Positions 19,653 to 41,010 of a stretch of DNA of 64,000 bases are shown here, piece by piece. Position 1 is the stretch's first letter; the number at the start of each line of letters is the position of its first letter. The notes under the pieces were generated by a model. The model was not told where the DNA came from, did not search any database, and worked only from the letters and a program-made list of their open reading frames with translations. This DNA is from Alphaproteobacteria bacterium (lineage in GTDB: Bacteria; Pseudomonadota; Alphaproteobacteria; GCA-2731375). Made by a program: the position numbers and the translations under genes. The stretch spans positions 64,001-128,000 of the forward strand of contig CBDDBZ010000039.1 in NCBI GenBank assembly GCA_965225945.1. The letters are read 5' to 3'.

Positions 19653-20954
19653 CCCCCGCCGCAGCGAACGCGGGTTGTTTGGCGTCTCCGGAAATTCCCA
19701 CGATAATTCAGCAGGTTGCGCCGTATGAGTGCGCCAAATTGAGGCAGAGAGACCTCAGTGACGGCCGAATATCGACCGAAACTGAAGACCGTCTCCGCCG
19801 GCCGACTTTCATGACCCCAGTTTTGCGTGATGGTCGACGCCAAGCGGTCAATCGAAGCCCAGCAGACGGCGCTGGTCGCCCCACATTGGCGGCAATGAAA
19901 CTAGACGCTTGAGCCTGGATACATTCAGCTCGATGGGCTGGCAGCCGACCAAGATCGCGGAGACGATATCGGGCGCCCGATAGGCCAGCGCCAAAATCTT
20001 CCCGACGTCGCCGCGATCGGCGCCATGATGTCGTGCGAGGTTCGTGACGGAGTTGGCCTTGCCGGACATCAGCTCATCCCTCCAGAGACGCGCCGTTGCC
20101 AGGAGGGAGACCATCTCGGCATCGGGAGGAGCCGACTCCATACTCTCGCCGGTGAGTATGACCTTCGCCTCGACACCGCGCCGACGGACCTGGGTCGAGA
20201 CCGTCATCTCGGCCGTAACGGGATGCAGTTCAATGCTTTCGTCCAACGCATTGCCAAGCAACCGCTTGGCCAATGCCTGACGGTCGACGATGATCTCGAG
20301 GGCATCGGTATCGACACCGACACGCCGGACCCAGGCGATTTCTCGATGCAGCCCTGGCTCGCGATCGCCCATGGCCAATCGATCCGCCAGGGCCACCGCC
20401 GCACCGGCCATCGATTTCAGGTCGACGGTGCCGAGGCTTTCGAGATCCAGCGTCTTCATCACCCGTATGGGATCGCGCAGGAACTCGGCCAGGCCGCGAA
20501 GAATGGCAGCTTCGATGGTCTCGGCTCGTAGTCGCCAAAGATCTTCGTTCGGCACAGGCGCGTCGTCGGATTGCCGCGACACATAGTATCGATATCGCCG
20601 ATCTCCCTTTTGGGCATGCGTCGGAGACATCAGCCTCCCTCGAGGATCGAACAAGCGCCCCTTGAAGAGATGCCGAGAGGGTTGATTTCTCGCGTGGTGC
20701 CGCCGCGCCGAGTTGCCGCGGAACTGTTCCTGCGCCGCCTCCCAGGTGGCCCGATCAACGATGGCCTCATGCAGGCCCGGGTAGATTTCCCTCTTGTGCC
20801 GGATCTCTCCGACGTAGATCGGGTTCTGCAGCAGCTTATGGTGTTAGCGGTGGTTCCAGGGTGCGCTTATATGGTGCTCTTTTTGAGCGGTCGGTGGCGG
20901 TTGGCTGACGGGATGCTTTTGGGCTTGGCTGATTTTGTTTCGCGCTGTGGCTAT

Positions 20955-21851
20955 TCAGTCGAGGGGCCGGTCATCGATCTGGAGCGGTTCGCCGGCGCGG
21001 TCGCGCATGAGCATGTCGTTCCAGTCCAGGCCGTCGAGGGCAGGGCGCAGGCGGACGACCCTGCTGTCGTTTCGGATGAGCCGTGCCGCGGCGTCATCGC
21101 CCTGGCGGGTGGCGTCGTAGGCGCAGAAGATCCGGCCGGGGTTCCAGGCCTCGATCCATTCGGGGAGGCTTGCGGTGGCGCCGCCGGTTGAGACCACGGC
21201 GCATCCCTTGCGCCCGGCCGGGACGAGGTGGAGGGAGAGGACCGACAGGGCGTCGATTGCGTTCTTGGCGAGGATGACGGAGTTCGGCCAGTCGGGTTCC
21301 CACGACATCCAGAAGCCGCCGCGCGCGGCGGCGCCGGTCGGCGCGAGGCGGCGTGGCGCCGCGGCAGGGACGATCTCGGCGCCGAGAGCCTCGCCGGCCG
21401 CGTTTCGGCGGACGAACACGGCGTTGCCGTGGCGGTCGGCGTAGAGCAAGCCGAGGTCGCGGCACAGGGCGACGAGCACATCCGCGAGGCCGCGCTGCTC
21501 GACGAGGTAGCTCTGGATGGCGGGCCAGTGGCGGTCCGGGCACGGCGGCTTCGGGTGGCGATCGGCCGGGAACCGGTCACGGCACGGCAGTTCCGAGAAG
21601 AAGCCGAGGGCCTCGGGCACGGTGCACCGGCAGGCATGGATTACCAGGTCGATCGCTCCGCCCCCGCCCTCGCCGCGCAGATGTTCGTAGAACATAAAGC
21701 CGTTGATGCTGACGACGGATCCGGGACGCCTCCAGCGCGCGGCATCGGTGGGATCGCGGCGGTAGCCGAGGCGGCGGACGACGTCTTCGAGGGGATAGCC
21801 TCGCAGGGCCTCGGCCCGCACCCGCCGGTCCCAGAGGCGGGGACCATCCAT
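20955..21851 (-). CDS. Primase-like DUF3991/TOPRIM protein with degenerate acidic motifs
   Basis: GGGAIDLV, YL..RGL, LLYAD..GNAVF, AIDALS, STGG, AYDA, DWND. Confidence 0.75.
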   Translation of the reverse strand: MDGPRLWDRRVRAEALRGYPLEDVVRRLGYRRDPTDAARWRRPGSVVSINGFMFYEHLRGEGGGGAIDLVIHACRCTVPEALGFFSELPCRDRFPADRHPKPPCPDRHWPAIQSYLVEQRGLADVLVALCRDLGLLYADRHGNAVFVRRNAAGEALGAEIVPAAAPRRLAPTGAAARGGFWMSWEPDWPNSVILAKNAIDALSVLSLHLVPAGRKGCAVVSTGGATASLPEWIEAWNPGRIFCAYDATRQGDDAAARLIRNDSRVVRLRPALDGLDWNDMLMRDRAGEPLQIDDRPLD

Positions 21852-21853
21852 GG

Positions 21854-22642
21854 CTACGCCGGCGGCGGTTCCCCGCGGTCCTGCGCGCCGGCCTTGCCGG
21901 CTCGCCGCCGGCGGCGCTCGGCGCTGCGCTGCTTCTGGCGTTCCTCGGCCTCCTTGCGGCGCCAGGACTCGCCGTCGATGGCGATGATCTCGGCGTTGTG
22001 GACGAGGCGGTCGACCAGGGCGACGAGGCAGGCGGCGTTGGGGAAGGCCTCACCCCACTCGGCGAAGGGCCGGTTGGTGGTGATTATGGTGGAGTTCTGC
22101 TGGCTGCGGCTGGAGACGATGTTGAACAGCAGATCGGCATGGCGGTTGCTGTAGGACAGGTATCCGACCTCGTCGATCACCAGCAGGTGCTGGCGGGCGT
22201 AGAAGCGCAGCCTGCGCTGAAGCAGGGTGTCGCTGTCGAGGGCGGCGAGCTCGCCGAGCATGCTGGCCGCGGTGGCGAAGCGCACGGTGTGGCCCTCGAG
22301 GACGGCGCGGTGGGCGATATTGGCGGCGATGGTCGACTTGCCGACGCCGTTTGGGCCGACCAGGACGACGTTGGCGGCCTCGTTGAGGAACTCGAGGCTC
22401 ATGAGATCCTCGACGGCCATGCGGTCGCAGCGGCGCGGCCATGCCCAGTCGAAGTCGGCGAGCGGCTTGAACTGTCCGAGGCGGGCGTCGCCGAGGCGGC
22501 GCTTGAGGCTGCGGCTTCGCCGTTCCTCCTCTTCCCAGGCGACCAGCGCAGCGGGCCAGTCATGCCCGGCGACCTCGCCCCAGTGGGCGGCGAGGCCGTG
22601 CAGGCCGAGCGCCCGGGCACGGCCCATGAGGGTATCGTTCAT
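21854..22642 (-). CDS. istB: IS21 AAA+ ATPase
   Basis: [31 protein letters not shown]. Confidence 0.93.
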
Positions 22643-24144
22643 TGCTCGCTGTCCTCCTCGGGTTCGCCGGCCAGCCCGTCGTATCCGACGAGGTCGTGAT
22701 CGCGGACAGTGATGTCGCGCACTCTCGGATCGCCGGGCAGTTCGACGGGGATGGGCGGGGGTTGGTGCCGCAGCTCGCGCCGCCGGGTCAGGCTCAGGCG
22801 CACGGCGTTGGGATGGGGAACGTCCCGCTTCAGGGCCTCGTCGATGGCCGCCTCGAGCTCGGCGGCGCCGTAGGCGTCGAGGAGGCGCAACAGGGCGGCG
22901 ACGGTGGCGCCTATATAGCCGCCGCGCTGGGCGGCCTCGGCGAGCAGGCGCTCGCTGTTGGGCGCGGCCTGGACCAGCCGGTCCTGGCCGCGAAGGCGGC
23001 GGGCATGGCTCTTGCGCCTGACCAGCTCGGCGATGTGCTCGGGGTTCTCGATGCGGGCCGCCTTGTCGAAGCTGCGCGGATGGCTGGCGATGACGTCCAC
23101 ACCGTCGAGGATGCGCACCTCGTCGAGCGTCGCGACCACGACGAGGGTGCGCCGCACATGGGTGTGCGGCACGCTGTAATCGTTGAGATCGAAGCGGGCG
23201 TAGGGGGTCTTGCCGATGGCGACCTCGACCCGGTCGTGGTCGGGGAAGGGATCGCCGGGCAGCGCGATGAGAGAGCCGCGTTCCCGCTCGAAGGCCTCGC
23301 GCACGGTGATCGAGCGGTCTTCGGGCCAGGGGCGGTCGGCGGCGATGCCGTGGCACCAGGCCAGGGCCTGGGCGTTGAGATCGTCGATATCGCGCCACCG
23401 GCGGGCGGCGAAGAAGCTGGTCCGGACATAGCGAATCGCCCGCTCCACGCGCCCCTTCTCGTTGCCGCGCGCGACCGCGACGGGCTTGGGCAGGAAGTGG
23501 TAGTGGCCGGCGAGGTCGAGGATCCGGGGATTGAACCGGATGGCGGCGCCGCGGCGCTCCAGCACGACGCTCTTCAGGTTGTCGTACCAGAGCTCGCGGG
23601 GCACGCCCTGCCACGCCTCGAAGGCTTCGACATGGCCGCGCAGGAAGTTGCTCATCCCGGCGTCGAGGTAGAAGCGCAGGAAGATCCGCCGCGAGTAGCT
23701 GAGAACCATCACGAAGCCCATCAGGCGGCGCTCCGCGCGGCCGATCGTCACCTTGCCGAAGTGTCCCCAGTCGACCTGGGCCTGCTCGCCGGGAAGGGTC
23801 TTGAGGCGCAGATAGGCCTCGGCCACGGGCCTGGGCCTGAAGTGGCTGAGCAGATGACGGAAGTGGTCGCCGCCGCCCGGATAGCCGCGTTCGCGCACCA
23901 TCTGGTAGAGCCGGCTGGCGGGCAGCGTCGGCCAGGATGCCAGCGTCTCGGCGATGAACGGCACGTATGGATCGATCATCGACGGCCTGGGCGACCTCGC
24001 GTCCCGGGGCTCGCCGGCCGCGGTGAGGAGGCGCTCGACGGTGTAGCGATGCACGCCGAGCTGGCGTGTGATCGTGCCGACCGTCCACTTCTCGACGTGA
24101 TACAGGCGCAGGATCTCCGCGCGGGTCTCCTTGTCGATGGTCAT
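22639..24144 (-). CDS. istA: IS21 DDE transposase
   Basis: [31 protein letters not shown]. Confidence 0.93.
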
Positions 24145-24581
24145 CTCACCCCCTTTCCCGTCGGGCGCAGCCCCGGATAGACCGCCTGCCCGCAGAACCG
24201 GCCGCAGCGATCGCAGCGGAAGACCCTGGCGGGCCGCTCGTGCCCGAAGGGCCGTGTTCCGGGACGCCCTGCCGGCGTCCGCACCACAACAGGACGCCGC
24301 CGCGCGGCGGTCAAAGGGTGATGCGTCACTTCCTGCCCGCGGCGCCGATTCACCGGCGTCCGGCGCCGTCGGCGTTCGCGATAGCGCCGCTGGCGCTCAG
24401 CATGCTTGTGACGGCCCCGCCGGCTGTTCTGGTAGCGCTGCCCGGCATGGCGCTGCGATCGCCGGCGCACCCGATCGCTGCAGCTCCGTGAACAGTAGAT
24501 GTTGCCGTGGTCGCAGTGCCGGCAGAGAACCACCTGTTGATGGCACGAGGCGCAGTTGAACAGGCGGGCGGTGTTCTTCAT
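24141..24581 (-). CDS. Cys-rich, basic zinc-finger-like protein upstream of istA
   Basis: CASC..CRHC..YCSRSC and C-terminal CDRCGRFC; stop overlaps the istA ATG. Confidence 0.7.
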
Positions 24582-25681
24582 CGCGCAGCCGATGAGAACG
24601 GGGTGGACCCACGCCCAAACCCGCACGATACTGCGCATATGGGTCGTGCCTTGCATGGCTCGGGGGGTGCGGTGCCGGTCGTTGCCAGCAAGCAAACGGG
24701 GCCGGCGCCGCATCGTTCTCAGCGGCCCGAGTGTACTCCCGCGGCTCCCCTTGTCAGGTCCGCGGAACCGCCGCCGCCAGCCAGCCAAAACAGGAATCGA
24801 GACGCCCGCCCGCGGTGGATAAGCAGCCCGCCGCCGCCAGACTCTTGGCGGTCGCTGCGGCGGGCTACTTACCCACCGCTGCGCCGAGCCAACTCCCGCC
24901 TGCAAACCACGCAGCTACAGCGCCACGATGCCCGATGTCGCTGAAATCACCATCTAAGCGCGGTTTTTCATCGCCACCGACATATGGAGATGGCCCGACG
25001 TGAACGGCGCGTACCCCGGCCGCTTCTGATTGTTGGGACCGCGCGCCTTGGTGCGAAGTCCCATCCGATCCGCCGCCTCGTGGACTTTGTCCACCGTGCC
25101 CAGTTCGAGATAGAGCCGGAACAGGGTTCGGACGGTTTCCGCCTCTTGCTCGTTGACGATGAGCTTCCGATCCGCGGCGTCGTAGCCGAGCGGCACGAGG
25201 CCCCCCATCCACATGCCCTTCTTTTTCGAGGCGGCGATCTTGTCGCGGATCCGCTCGGCAGTGACCTCGCGCTCGAACTGGGCGAAGGACAGCAGCACGT
25301 TCAGGGTCAACCGCCCCATCGAGGTCGTGGTGTTGAACTGCTGGGTGACCGAGACGAACGACACCTCGTGGCGCTCGAAGACATCGACCAGCTTGGCGAA
25401 GTCGGTGAGCGAACGACTGAGGCGGTCCACCTTGTAGGTGACGATGATCTGGATCTTGCCGTCCTCGATGTCCTTTAGCAGGCGTCGGAGCCCCGGCCGC
25501 TCCATGTTGCCGCCGCTGAACCCGCCATCGTCGTAACGGGTCGGACTTGCATGCCACCCCTCGCCAACTTGGCTGGCGATGAAGGCGGCGCAGGCTTCGC
25601 GCTGGGCATCGAGCGAGTTGAAGTCCTGGTCCAACCCCTCCTCGGTCGACTTGCGGGTGTAGACGGCGCAGCGGAGCCGTC

Positions 25682-26140
25682 TCATGGCTTACCCCTCGTC
25701 ACGAGGCCGAAGAAGCGGGGTCCGGACCACTTGGCACCCGTGATCGCGCGGGCCACGGCGGTGAGGGAGGGATAGGTACAGCCCTGCCAGAGGAAGCCCC
25801 CATCGACGGCGTCGACCACATGGTTTCGTCCGTTCCACTCTCGAACCAAGCGGCTGCCGACGGATACGGAAGCGGTGTTGGGCGTCCGTGACCGAGCGTC
25901 GCTTTCGTTGCTGAGCCTCGCGCCGTCTCTCAGCCGGCGCCGGGCCACGGCGGACAAGCCGCCATGGCACTCGGCCTGCATCTCATAGGCGACCGCGAGG
26001 ATGATGAGGCGGCGGCTCATGCCTTTCAGAACGCTACGGTCGAAGAGCTGTTGCCATCGCTCGATCAGCTCGTCTCGAGGGAGATCGGCGAGTTGCTCGA
26101 TCTCCCCCTTCAGATCGCCATGCTTCTTTCGATCCGACAT
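25682..26140 (-). CDS. DUF2924 protein
   Basis: GSRLVREWNG, YPSLTAVARAITGAKWSGPRFFGL; overlaps the recombinase start. Confidence 0.9.
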   Translation of the reverse strand: MSDRKKHGDLKGEIEQLADLPRDELIERWQQLFDRSVLKGMSRRLIILAVAYEMQAECHGGLSAVARRRLRDGARLSNESDARSRTPNTASVSVGSRLVREWNGRNHVVDAVDGGFLWQGCTYPSLTAVARAITGAKWSGPRFFGLVTRGKP

Positions 26141-37765: not shown

Positions 37766-39277
37766 ATGTTGGTCGTGGAGACGATAGCGCGGATCCGGCG
37801 GGAGTATTTCGTCAAGGGGAAGCCGATCAAGGAGATCGTGCGGGACGTGAAGGTCTCGGGCAACACGGTGCGCAAGGTGATCCGTTCGCAGGCGACGGCG
37901 TTCACCTACGACCGGCGGGTCCAGCCGATGCCGAAGCTGGGGCCGTGGACGGCCGAGCTGGAGCGGATGCTGGAGGCCAACGAGACCAAGTCGAAGCGGG
38001 AGCGGCTGACGCTGCTACGGATCTCCGAAGCCCTCGAGGGTCTGGGCTATGGCGGCGGCTACGACGCGGTGCGGCGCTACGCCAAGGCGTGGCGGTGGCG
38101 CCGTTCGGCATCGACGGCGCAGACCTATGTGCCGTTGGTGTTCTCGCCGGGCGAGGCCTATCAGTTCGACTGGAGCCACGAGTACGTGGTGCTGGCGGGG
38201 GTGACGACCAAGGTCAAGGTCGCGCACGTCCGGCTGTGCCACAGCCGAATGTTCTTCGTCCGCGCTTATCCGCGCGAGAGCCAGGAGATGGTGTTCGACG
38301 CCCACGACCGGGCATTCCGGCTGTTCCAGGGTGCCTGCCGGCGAGGCATCTACGACAACATGAAGACGGCGGTGCAGACCGTCCTCATCGGCAAGGAGCG
38401 CGCGTTCAACCGGCGCTTCGTGCAGATGTGTGGCCACTACCTGGTCGAACCGACAGCATGCACGCCGGGAGCGGGATGGGAGAAGGGGCAGGTCGAGAAC
38501 CAGGTCGGGATCATCCGCGGTCGGTTCTTCACCCCGCGGCTGCGCTTCAAGACCTACGACGAACTCAACGCCTGGCTCTTGGACCAGTGCGTCGCCTACG
38601 CCCGGCGTCATCCCCACCCGGTGTTCAAGGACAGGACTGTCTGGCAGGTGTTCGAGGACGAGCGTCCGTCCCTGGTCGGCTATCGCGGGCCGTTCGACGG
38701 CTTCCACGCGGTCCCGGCGTCGGTGTCGAAGACCTGCCTGGTGCGCTTCGACAGCAACAAGTACAGCGTGGCGGCGCGCGCCGTCGGCCGTCCGGTCGAG
38801 GTCCATGCCTACGCCGATCGCATCGTCATCCGCCAGGACGGCGAGATCGTCGCCGAGCATGCCCGGCGCTTCGGCCGCGACCAGACCGTCTATGACCCGT
38901 GGCACTACGTGCCCGTGCTGGCGAGGAAGCCCGGTGCGCTTCGTAACGGCGCGCCGTTCAAGGACTGGGCGCTGCCCGGCGCCCTGGGTCGCGTGCGCGT
39001 CCGGCTCGCCGGCCACGACGACGGCGACAGGCAGATGGTCGAGATCCTCACCGCCGTGCTGGCGGATGGGCTGGCGGCGGTGGAGGCCGCCTGTGCCGAG
39101 GCGCTCGCTGGCGGCGTGTGCAGCGCCGACGTCGTGCTCAACATCCTCAATCGTCGGCGCCAGCCGTCCGAGACGGCGCCGATCCCGACGCCCGCGAACC
39201 TGCGTCTTCGCTTTGAGCCGGTGGCCGATTGCACCCGCTACGACCGCTTGAGGGGGGTCGGCCATGGAGCGCCATGA
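37766..39277 (+). CDS. istA: IS21 transposase
   Basis: [23 protein letters not shown]. Confidence 0.93.
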
Positions 39278-39992
39278 GGTCCTGGAGATGATGGCCGCAC
39301 TCAAGCTCGCCGGCATGCGCGACGCGTTCGACGAGGTGCTCGCCGACGGCCTCAAGCGCCAGCATCCGATGCAGCGAATCATCGGCGAGCTGTTGAAGGC
39401 CGAGATCGCCGACAAGCAGGCGCGATCCATCAAGTACCAGATGAGTGGCGCCAAGCTGCCGCTGGCCAAGGAGCTGGCCGACTTCGACTTCACCGACACC
39501 CCGGTCAACGAGCCGCTGGTCCGCGAGTTGGCGGTCGGCGGCTTCCTGGCCAACCAGCGCAACGCCGTGCTGATCGGCGGCACCGGCACCGGCAAGAGCC
39601 ATCTCGCCGTCGCCATCGCGCGGGCCTGCATCCGCGATGGCGCCCGGGGCCGCTTCTTCAACGTCGTCGACCTGGTCAACCGGCTCGAGGCCGAAGCCCG
39701 CGCCGGCCGCCAGGGCCGGCTCGCCGATCAGCTGGCCCGGCGCGACCTCGTCATCCTCGACGAGCTCGGCTACCTGCCCTTCGCCCAAACCGGAGGCCAG
39801 CTGCTGTTCCACCTCGTCAGCCGGCTCTACGAGCGCACCTCGATCATCGTCACCACCAACCTGACCTTCGGCGAATGGCCGTCCGTCTTCGGCGACGCCA
39901 AGATGACCACCGCGCTCCTCGATCGTCTGACGCACCACTGCGAGATCATCGAGACCGGAAACGACTCCTGGCGCTTCAAGAATCGGTCCTAA
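39264..39992 (+). CDS. istB: IS21 ATPase
   Basis: [20 protein letters not shown]. Confidence 0.93.
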
Positions 39993-41010
39993 AGGCAACC
40001 GATCCACCTGCCGCCCGGTCGCCCAGGTGGGCCCACAGGAACCTCCCACGCGCGGTCCGCCGCCAGCCGCGTGGTGGGCGCGTCGGCCCGCGCGCGGGCC
40101 CCTCCTATGGACTACCTGTACGACCTCCGCCGTGCATCCCCAAAGGGGTCAACATTGCACGCCGATAGGGGGTCAATGTTCAACGCCGATTGACAAGATG
40201 GCGACACGGTGGGTGTAGCGGGAGAGATAGGCGAGCACGGCCTCTGGTCCGCCGAAGGGCGGCTTGGCGTAGACGACCCATTCTTGTTTGCGCATCGGTG
40301 CGAGGAAGACACGGAAGGCCGCCGGCTCGGCGAGGCTGGTGTGGTCGGTGAAGAACTTCAGGCGCCCTGCCTCGTGGGCGGCGAGGAGCTTCTCGATGAA
40401 GAGGCGGCGGAAGAGGCGCGAGAGCACGCGGACGGGCAGGAAGAAGCCGGGCCGGCAAGAGATCCAACTGCTACCGTCAGGTGAGATTCCGCCACCCGGC
40501 ACGATCATGTGGATGTGGGGATGGTGGGTCATGGCCGAGCCCCAGGTGTGGAGCACGGCGGTGATGCCGATCTTGGCGCCGAGATGCTTGGGATCGGCGG
40601 CGATGGTGAGCATGGTCTCGGCGCTCGCCTTGAACAGGATATCGTAGATCACCGACTTGTTCTGATAGGCGATGTCGGCGATCGCCGCTGGCAGGGTGAA
40701 GACGAGATGGTAGTAGGGGACGGAGAGCAGTTCGGCCTCTCGCGCCGCCAGCCATTCGCGCGCGACCTGGCCTTGGCATTTGGGACAATGGCGGTTGCGA
40801 CAGGAATTGTAGGCGATGTGGTTCTGCCCGCAGTCCTCGCAGGCCGCGACATGACCGCCGAGCGCGGCGGTGCGGCAACACTCGATCGCCGACATGACCT
40901 TCAGTTGGCCGAGGCTCAGACGACCGGCCCGGGCCCGACGGAAGCCGGGCCCGTGGTCGCGGAAGATGTCCTGGACCTCGAGCGCGGGACGCGGCACCGA
41001 GGCCGCCGGC

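Follow-up and report, generated by a model that had tools for sequence, protein, structure and literature searches.

Insertion sequences of the IS21 family are recognized by imperfect terminal inverted repeats with TG..CA ends and repeated internal motifs, and they generate target-site duplications (TSDs) of 4 to 8 bp. Canonical members are about 2 to 2.6 kb in length. Insertion sequences are thought to carry only the functions essential for movement, and IS21 is a model for transposases controlled by AAA+ ATPases. Transposition of the family (IS21, IS5376, and relatives) is attributed to IstA and IstB (PMC11208146; for IS21 family insertion sequences, see also PMC10122671). The window analyzed here, a stretch of 64,000 nucleotides from an alphaproteobacterial assembly (GCA_965225945.1, contig CBDDBZ010000039.1, positions 64,001 to 128,000), contains an IS21-family insertion sequence at positions 20842 to 24982 (4,141 bp, TG..CA ends, genes on the minus strand) that breaks the two-gene rule (istA plus istB only). 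This element consists of four coupled open reading frames (ORFs), the order of which is conserved in the related loci L013, L014, L015, L023, L024, and L035. The last gene encodes a protein predicted to adopt the fold of a primase, with a degenerate active site, and genes of this kind lie behind transposition ATPase genes in many other elements.

Reading of the ends and comparison of the duplications placed the two copies of the TSD, TATGG, at positions 20837 to 20841 and 24983 to 24987. In window orientation, the first letters of the element are TGTTAGCGG and the last letters are CCACCGACA. The right (3') end (20842 to 20954, minus strand) contains the terminal TG and repeated GGTGG-type motifs, and its terminus, ...CGCTAACA, is common to the element and its relatives L013 to L015. 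The left (5') end (24920 to 24982, minus strand), delimited by comparison with relatives, has the gene-strand terminus TGTCGGTGGCG..., and the element termini are common to L013 to L015 and L024. The minus strand encodes, from left end to right end, a cysteine-rich (Cys-rich) ORF of 146 residues (24141 to 24581) that could be assigned to no known family by Pfam, NCBIfam, or structure searches, the DDE transposase IstA (22639 to 24144, 501 residues), the helper AAA+ ATPase IstB (21854 to 22642, 262 residues), and the primase-like protein (20955 to 21851, 298 residues). Pfam searches, alignments, and an AlphaFold2 model divided the latter into a domain that resembles a zinc-binding domain (ZBD) without the zinc site, a DUF3991 domain, and a TOPRIM domain. 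The ORF coordinates revealed ATGA-type overlaps at the junctions of the Cys-rich ORF with istA and of istA with istB, and a gap of 2 nucleotides between the stop codon of istB and the ATG of the primase-like gene. IstA scored 249.1 bits against the IS21 transposase model NF033546 of NCBIfam (cut-off, 160) and contained the Pfam domains HTH_23, rve, and Mu-transpos_C_2. IstB scored 206.7 bits against the helper ATPase model NF038214 (cut-off, 200) and 184 bits against PF01695 (IstB_IS21). The primase-like ORF matched DUF3991 (36.6 bits; cut-off, 24.5) and Toprim_2 (22.9 bits; cut-off, 22.1). The element is one mobile IS21-type unit with four coupled genes. A first-pass annotation of the window had proposed a clean 5-bp TATGG duplication and TG..CA ends bounding 4,141 bp, together with four tightly coupled ORFs, and both proposals were borne out.

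Searching the source genome (G000; 39 contigs, 6.27 Mb) identified 19 full-length copies and 2 interrupted copies displaying 99.3 to 100% identity, in addition to fragments. Both interrupted copies are broken inside the primase-like gene by unrelated repeated sequence. Direct duplications of 5 bp (eight copies), 6 bp (six copies), or 7 bp (three copies) flank 17 of the 21 copies, and the remaining four have none. The element has transposed recently and repeatedly, moving as one unit as the first-pass annotation had supposed. An open set of four ORFs is present in 15 of the 21 copies, and the primase-like ORF taken by itself is open in 18, with frameshifts found in one copy each for istA, istB, the Cys-rich ORF, and the primase-like gene. 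Seven copies have in common an in-frame 6-bp deletion that converts the glycine loop RGEGGGGA into RGGGGA; two sub-lineages have therefore both multiplied. Single-nucleotide polymorphisms (SNPs) among the copies comprised 25 nonsynonymous and 6 synonymous changes for all genes (10 and 2 for the primase-like gene, 8 and 0 for istB), the excess of nonsynonymous changes being expected of young copies that are not individually under selection. Contigs from four RNA libraries of two studies cover the element including the primase-like gene, one of them end to end; this points only weakly to transcription, because the data consist of contigs and may include carried-over DNA, and gaps in the cover (X16 to X18) carry no meaning. 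The best-matching DNA metagenomes are labeled sponge metagenome.

The genome offers several observations apart from the element's own history. It is rich in insertion sequences. Another IS21-family element, located at G000:C39:101778-103998 (window positions about 37778 to 39998), is present in roughly 50 copies and displays about 31% IstA identity and 35% IstB identity with the element studied here. Two copies of the latter, at G000:C18:73087-77221 and G000:C37:75401-79541, lie in an IS1595-type transposase gene, where their flanking sequences and their 7-bp duplications are identical, yet they differ by the 6-bp deletion. This pair could be accounted for by duplication of a carrier element with later conversion or by repeated insertion at one site. 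One of the interrupted copies is split by a 332-bp sequence (G000:C27:62270-62601) that recurs in dozens of near-identical copies in the genome. A 43-nucleotide piece of this sequence also occurs nearby as an inverted copy, and the whole may represent a small insertion sequence or a miniature inverted-repeat transposable element.

The AlphaFold2 model of the primase-like protein, based on an alignment of 54 homologues, had a mean predicted local distance difference test score (pLDDT) of 86.5. The best Foldseek matches in the PDB were the ZBD and polymerase domain of Aquifex DnaG (2au3; E value, 1e-5), Twinkle (7t8b), a primase fragment of T7 gp4, and DnaG polymerase domains, with probabilities of about 1.0 for 2au3, 1nui, 5guj, and 4edg. 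The protein is thus predicted to fold like a primase of the DnaG and T7 gp4 type, with a ZBD look-alike followed by DUF3991 and TOPRIM, and in the model it ends after the TOPRIM domain, without a helicase or helicase-binding domain. CHC2 is the zinc-site motif of DnaG-type primases. It is absent from the first 90 residues, which contain only C74, C76, and C90, and no match to zf-CHC2 of Pfam was obtained at E values up to 0.01; since the N-terminal domain has no CxxC, the canonical zinc site cannot form. The TOPRIM glutamate is replaced by Lys196 (KNAID for ESAID) and the DxD motif by D246-A-T248 (DAT), two substitutions that the first-pass annotation had read from the sequence and that alignments confirmed. 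Alignment of the window protein with 84 homologues from other loci (85 rows) revealed that 13 proteins lack the glutamate and have DAT or worse. All 13 belong to the window clade, defined here by at least 60% identity to the window protein, and the other 72 keep both the glutamate (ES..D) and DxD. Loss of the two motifs is, in these alignments, clade-specific and inherited. The earlier expectation that the loss would be conserved among homologues thus holds within the window clade and fails outside it. In a further alignment, one protein of the clade retains the glutamate. The former glutamate position is variable within the clade (K, G, D, or N) and appears to behave as an unconstrained site. 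Blocks outside the active site (INGFMFYDH, GGGGAIDLVIH, GGFWMSWE, and DWNDML) are conserved. The protein atlas provided only generic Toprim cluster names for this protein.

Ratios of nonsynonymous to synonymous substitution rates (dN/dS) between diverged elements, calculated by the method of Nei and Gojobori (NG86), ranged from 0.35 to 0.68 for the primase-like gene, omitting one pair with a dS of 0.009. The corresponding values were 0.07 to 0.32 for istB, 0.23 to 0.48 for istA, and 0.24 to 0.49 for the Cys-rich ORF, all of them probably overstated by NG86 in a GC-rich genome. As judged from these ratios, the primase-like gene is under purifying selection and is not decaying, in agreement with the first-pass prediction of a dN/dS below 1.

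Analysis of the genes surrounding the homologues was based on 84 loci, 80 of which were retrieved by searching metagenome contigs with the family alignment and 4 by scanning genome contigs. The homologue directly follows istB in 64 loci and an AAA_22 ATPase gene, itself following an rve transposase gene, in 7 loci; 9 contigs were too short for their context to be judged. Thus, in 71 of the 75 informative loci, the homologue lies directly behind a transposition ATPase gene, often overlapping it. Homologues are consistently found within IS21-type elements, as anticipated by the first-pass annotation. The remaining four loci comprise a Tn3-family transposase, a Mob_Pre fusion, an IS66 neighbor, and a convergent istAB pair. 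Tn3-family elements transpose replicatively. In the Tn3-family locus (L040:757-5461), a gene for a transposase of 996 residues and a divergent tyrosine recombinase gene are accompanied by a DUF3991/Toprim homologue located 49 bp behind the transposase gene. The IS66 transposase gene beside the homologue of L076 was rejected as an independent association, the Toprim protein being identical to that of L078, which follows istB. In the source genome, two related primase-like relics with 64% identity and the same dead active site (L011:6341-7135 and L012:350-1144, on contigs C30 and C38) adjoin a UPF0236-type transposase gene within a duplicated region. An independent link to this transposase type was also rejected, because the two sequences align only from residue 44 and group with an IS21 remnant in the tree, which identifies them as 5'-truncated relics.

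Several kinds of elements carry these genes. Of the 84 loci, 36 are five-gene IS21 units roughly 5 kb long (e.g., L095:454-5004, L062:92-5175, and L058:16-4982), in which a Cys-rich ORF is followed by the genes for a ParB/KorB-HTH-like protein, for IstA and IstB, and lastly for a DUF3991/Toprim protein of 282 residues with an intact active site. Terminal inverted repeats of 50 to 62 nucleotides surround all five genes in three of the four loci tested, and terminal repeats likewise enclose the primase-like gene in the relatives of the window element. The rve/AAA_22 elements (L026, L027, L029, and L031 to L034) consist of a Cys-rich ORF, an rve/HTH_32 transposase gene, an AAA_22 ATPase gene, and a Toprim gene. 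L013, L014, L015, L023, and L024 are relatives of the window element in which the set of four genes and their order are unchanged. In L035, also a four-gene element, IstA identity is 50% and the Toprim protein has both the glutamate and DxD intact. In a quick maximum-likelihood tree, the proteins of the five-gene units formed one clade (58 rows; support, 99) and those of the rve/AAA_22 elements a second group (23 rows; support, 98), inside which both four-gene IS21 lineages were nested; the window clade (12 rows; support, 100) emerged on a long stem (length, 0.9). Since the IS21 lineages are nested among rve/AAA_22 proteins, the module appears to have moved between transposon types. In these contigs, primase-like genes beside transposition ATPase genes are widespread among AAA+-dependent DDE transposons, and most members keep the catalytic residues.

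Relatives that lack the gene were also found. An IstA-based search identified an IS21 relative with 63% IstA identity on plasmids of Aromatoleum aromaticum EbN1 and Alicycliphilus denitrificans BC. This element contains a homologue of the window's Cys-rich ORF (L017:3399-3578 in NC_006823.1 and L018:5316-5495 in NC_014911.1) that is absent from the annotated features of both plasmid records and, in place of the Toprim gene, a hypothetical ORF of 70 residues overlapping the end of istB. Matches were obtained in only two of 400 other genomes of the class, G240 (unpublished; two loci) and G113, the contigs of which (about 3.4 to 3.5 kb) contain the Cys-rich ORF, istA, and istB, without a Toprim gene. 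As judged by gene content, the Cys-rich gene is a more constant extra gene of this IS21 subgroup than the Toprim gene. Its conserved features are C10, C13, C20, C23, C30, and C34, a basic helical hairpin, and a C-terminal CxxC, and a longer in-frame upstream extension is not kept in frame in the relatives. No Pfam family, including TniQ/TnsD, was matched by the Cys-rich ORF at E values up to 0.1, NCBIfam provided no match, and a structure search with the protein returned nothing significant (best match, YacG; E value, 1.7). Comparison with the Cys-rich ORF of the five-gene elements by hhalign did not establish homology (probability, 3%; E value, 0.013 over 45 columns), and a CRHC...C-x3-C pattern present in both ORF types is a visual lead only.

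We lean toward the view that the primase-like protein is a functional, noncatalytic accessory factor of transposition, on the basis of the mobility of the whole unit, the predicted fold, the purifying selection on the gene, and the conserved gene linkage. IstA and IstB, by family membership, would perform transposition as in IS21. The family may have begun as transposon-borne primases that aided DNA synthesis after strand transfer, either by replication through the element or by repair of the intermediate. In the window clade, the primase would have become a pseudo-enzyme kept as a noncatalytic accessory subunit, one that would most likely retain an affinity for the single-stranded or forked DNA of the intermediate, or for the IstB/IstA complex, and would hand the intermediate to host replication or repair without being required for the chemistry of transposition. 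Within the accessory role, this specific function, namely binding of a single-stranded or forked intermediate or of IstB followed by transfer to host replication or repair, is proposed only tentatively. Prediction of a complex between IstB and the primase-like protein (alignments A3 and A2) gave a score of 0.00, which weighs neither for nor against binding.

Several observations weigh against an accessory function. The primase-like gene is the fastest evolving of the four, with about 66% protein identity to relatives versus 85 to 90% for IstB, its dN/dS is the highest, and the clade is separated from other homologues by the stem of 0.9 mentioned above. It is disrupted in 3 of the 21 genomic copies versus 1 for each of the other genes, a difference that is not significant. 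Among five relatives with 50 to 63% IstA identity, all have the Cys-rich gene and four lack the Toprim gene, which is present only in L035, contrary to the earlier supposition that close istAB relatives would carry it. Because the gene is missing from most of these relatives and from canonical IS21, it is dispensable for IS21-type transposition and is an exchangeable module. The loci used for the linkage analysis were found with the primase-like protein as the query and cannot show how often the gene is missing. Finally, repair of a gap of 5 to 7 nucleotides requires no primase.

A bolder extension of the accessory role, which we consider unlikely, would make DnaG-like TOPRIM proteins a specialized additional component of DDE transposons that depend on AAA+ ATPases, in two lineages of IS21, in the rve/AAA_22 elements, and possibly in certain Tn3-family elements. 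These proteins would couple strand transfer to priming or replication, and the pseudo-primase of the window clade would sense single-stranded or forked DNA and steer or license IstB. If true, the element would provide a minimal, protein-only counterpart of the TnsE pathway of Tn7.

The gene might instead be unrelated cargo serving the host replicon, for example a relic of the mobilization primases of plasmids or of integrative and conjugative elements, with which the family shares kinship. A search of 72,556 plasmid records retrieved only distant homologues (<32% identity) on 66 records, either fused to MobV relaxases or as stand-alone DUF3991/TOPRIM proteins encoded by mobilizable and conjugative plasmids, which speaks for cargo. 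The Mob_Pre fusion of one metagenome locus and the absence of the gene from several related IS21 elements point in the same direction. In a broader sampling of 1.84 billion representative proteins, the family comprised 1,070 members (E values up to 1e-3), many occurring as domains within far longer proteins, and a profile search of 400 genomes of the phylum detected it in only 3, inside larger open frames. The cargo explanation is nonetheless quite unlikely, since it is at odds with the fixed place of the gene behind two unrelated types of ATPase gene in 71 of the 75 informative loci and with its location inside the terminal repeats, and since a replicon would have no evident need of a primase that has lost catalysis.

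The first-pass annotation favored a target selector, in which the dead primase fold recognizes forks, single-stranded DNA, or conjugating DNA and recruits IstB, in the manner of TnsE in Tn7. The position of the gene directly behind the ATPase gene (71 of 75) and preservation of the fold despite loss of catalysis are compatible with such a role, as is the location of about 8 of the 21 copies inside genes of other mobile elements, perhaps including a Strawberry-notch-like helicase gene. The interrupted mobile-element genes encode an IS1595-type transposase (one site, two contigs), the IstA of another IS21 element (three different places), a group II intron reverse transcriptase, and a serine recombinase; the other interrupted genes encode the Strawberry-notch-like helicase, a TPR protein, a protein with a tRNA-editing domain, a methyltransferase, a sulfotransferase, and a DUF6880 protein. 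However, such an excess of mobile genes would be expected from the survival of harmless insertions, under purifying selection on insertions, in a genome rich in insertion sequences. The 17 duplicated target sites have no common motif, the interrupted genes are diverse and mutually unrelated, and neither a site- or structure-specific insertion pattern nor a common gene class was detected among the insertion sites. When copy orientation was set against local GC skew, the counts were 5 of 10 and 7 of 11; as the skew within 20 kb on either side is near zero, they weigh neither for nor against a selector. Most IS21-linked homologues keep the glutamate and DxD, which a pure selector does not need; the ancestral role therefore probably required catalysis and fits poorly with selection of targets. 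A Tn7-like selector is, on these grounds, very unlikely, and this part of the first-pass annotation was not sustained.

Loss of the active site could also have left a functionless relic that is gradually disappearing. This would account for a dN/dS above that of the other three genes, for the variability of the former catalytic site, for disruption in 3 of 21 copies, and for the 10 nonsynonymous to 2 synonymous SNPs within the genome. Such decay is improbable in view of the open frame kept in 12 clade members across dS values of 0.16 to 0.69 with dN/dS well below 1, of the conserved blocks outside the active site, and of a similar nonsynonymous excess among recent copies for istB (8 to 0).

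The noncoding stretch upstream of the Cys-rich ORF spans 401 bp (24582 to 24982), close to the 400 bp reported by the first-pass annotation. Comparison with relatives delimited a leader of about 150 nucleotides (24582 to 24731, minus strand) that is the most conserved part of the element, with 90 to 95% identity versus 84% for the Cys-rich ORF and istA, 88 to 89% for istB, and 77% for the primase-like gene. The leader is noncoding because insertions and deletions disrupt the reading frame that would connect an upstream ATG with the accepted start. It folds no better than shuffled sequences (z, -1.0), and no Rfam match above chance was obtained in positions 20700 to 25100. A promoter-like site, CTGACA-16-TACACT, recognized as a sequence motif and conserved in relatives, is located at positions 24730 to 24757 (minus strand). 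Between this site and the left end, folding and comparison with relatives revealed a 26-nucleotide inverted repeat (24812 to 24879) forming a long hairpin (-67.7 kcal/mol; z, -6) that L015 and L024 retain with changes on both arms. As a further possibility, the pseudo-primase, alone or with the Cys-rich protein, might damp or time transposition, for example through competition for the DNA intermediate or IstB. Regulation is a common function of pseudo-enzymes, the highly conserved leader and the hairpin insulator suggest tight control, and the element has reached only about 21 copies versus roughly 50 for the other IS21-type element of the genome. We regard this role as highly doubtful; the difference in copy number could have arisen in many other ways.

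The element interrupts a serine recombinase gene, of which the ORF list and Pfam assign the N-terminal piece with the Resolvase domain to positions 24983 to 25685 and the C-terminal piece, from the rest of the Recombinase domain onward, to positions 19848 to 20841, both on the minus strand. The open frame beyond the insertion begins with positions 47 to 101 of the Pfam Recombinase profile. Upon removal of the element and one TATGG copy, coordinate arithmetic alone, without joining of the pieces, places both in one frame, as expected from the first-pass annotation, which had noted that excision restores the gene.

Full-text literature searches, which did not extend to ISfinder, where the element may be named, retrieved no description of a primase-like gene in IS21-type elements, and the DUF3991 literature found concerned conjugative elements only. 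In PMC11208146, the words primase, toprim, passenger, and accessory are absent. The carriage of primase-like genes by IS21-type transposons is apparently an undescribed habit. A primase-shaped gene fixed directly behind that of the ATPase, both in numerous IS21-type elements and in another kind of transposon whose transposase and ATPase differ, points to a step of transposition for which the elements supply a factor of their own, probably DNA synthesis or handling of the intermediate. The coexistence of catalytically intact and dead versions, the dead one in an element with about 21 fresh copies, provides a natural experiment, which opens up the replication and repair of IS21-type intermediates and the steering of IstB by accessory proteins. 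The five-gene relatives, with their ParB-like gene, add further unstudied components.

Compared with described systems, the element resembles the IS21 family in encoding an IstA DDE transposase and an IstB AAA+ helper in overlapping genes and in having TG..CA ends with repeated motifs, short TSDs, and many copies per genome. It differs by its length of 4.1 kb and by two additional conserved genes in the same operon, istA being preceded by a Cys-rich ORF and istB followed by a primase-like gene. The primase-like protein has the predicted fold and domain order of DnaG and T7 gp4 (ZBD look-alike, DUF3991 as the N-terminal subdomain of the polymerase, and TOPRIM) but lacks the CHC2 zinc site, the TOPRIM glutamate, the full DxD, and a helicase or helicase-binding domain. 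The primase-like domain of Twinkle keeps a TOPRIM primase fold without primase activity. This human N-terminal domain was among the top structural matches (7t8b); unlike the window protein, which stands alone in a transposon, it is fused to a helicase and serves mitochondrial replication. Tn7 and Tn7-like elements (TnsB, TnsC, TnsD/TniQ, and TnsE) similarly combine a DDE transposase, an AAA+ ATPase that directs it, and additional proteins encoded by the element, among them, in Tn7-like systems, a zinc-finger protein. The window element has no TnsA, its Cys-rich ORF has no TniQ/TnsD match at E values up to 0.1, and its insertion pattern is not specific.

Two further systems involve related proteins. 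DUF3991/Toprim proteins are counted among conjugation genes in PMC4073490 and PMC13055273. Those of conjugative and mobilizable elements, including the MobV fusions, belong to the same Pfam families and have the same three-part module as the window protein; they differ by keeping the catalytic residues where examined (L094), by being linked to relaxases rather than transposases, and by displaying <32% identity. The insertion sequence excision enhancer (IEE) is presented as a PrimPol-type protein acting on intermediates of insertion sequence transposition (10.1101/2023.06.07.543989). IEE resembles the proposed factor in being a primase-family protein that works on insertion sequence intermediates, although it is a PrimPol of the archaeo-eukaryotic type encoded outside the insertion sequence, whereas the window protein is of the TOPRIM type and is encoded inside it.

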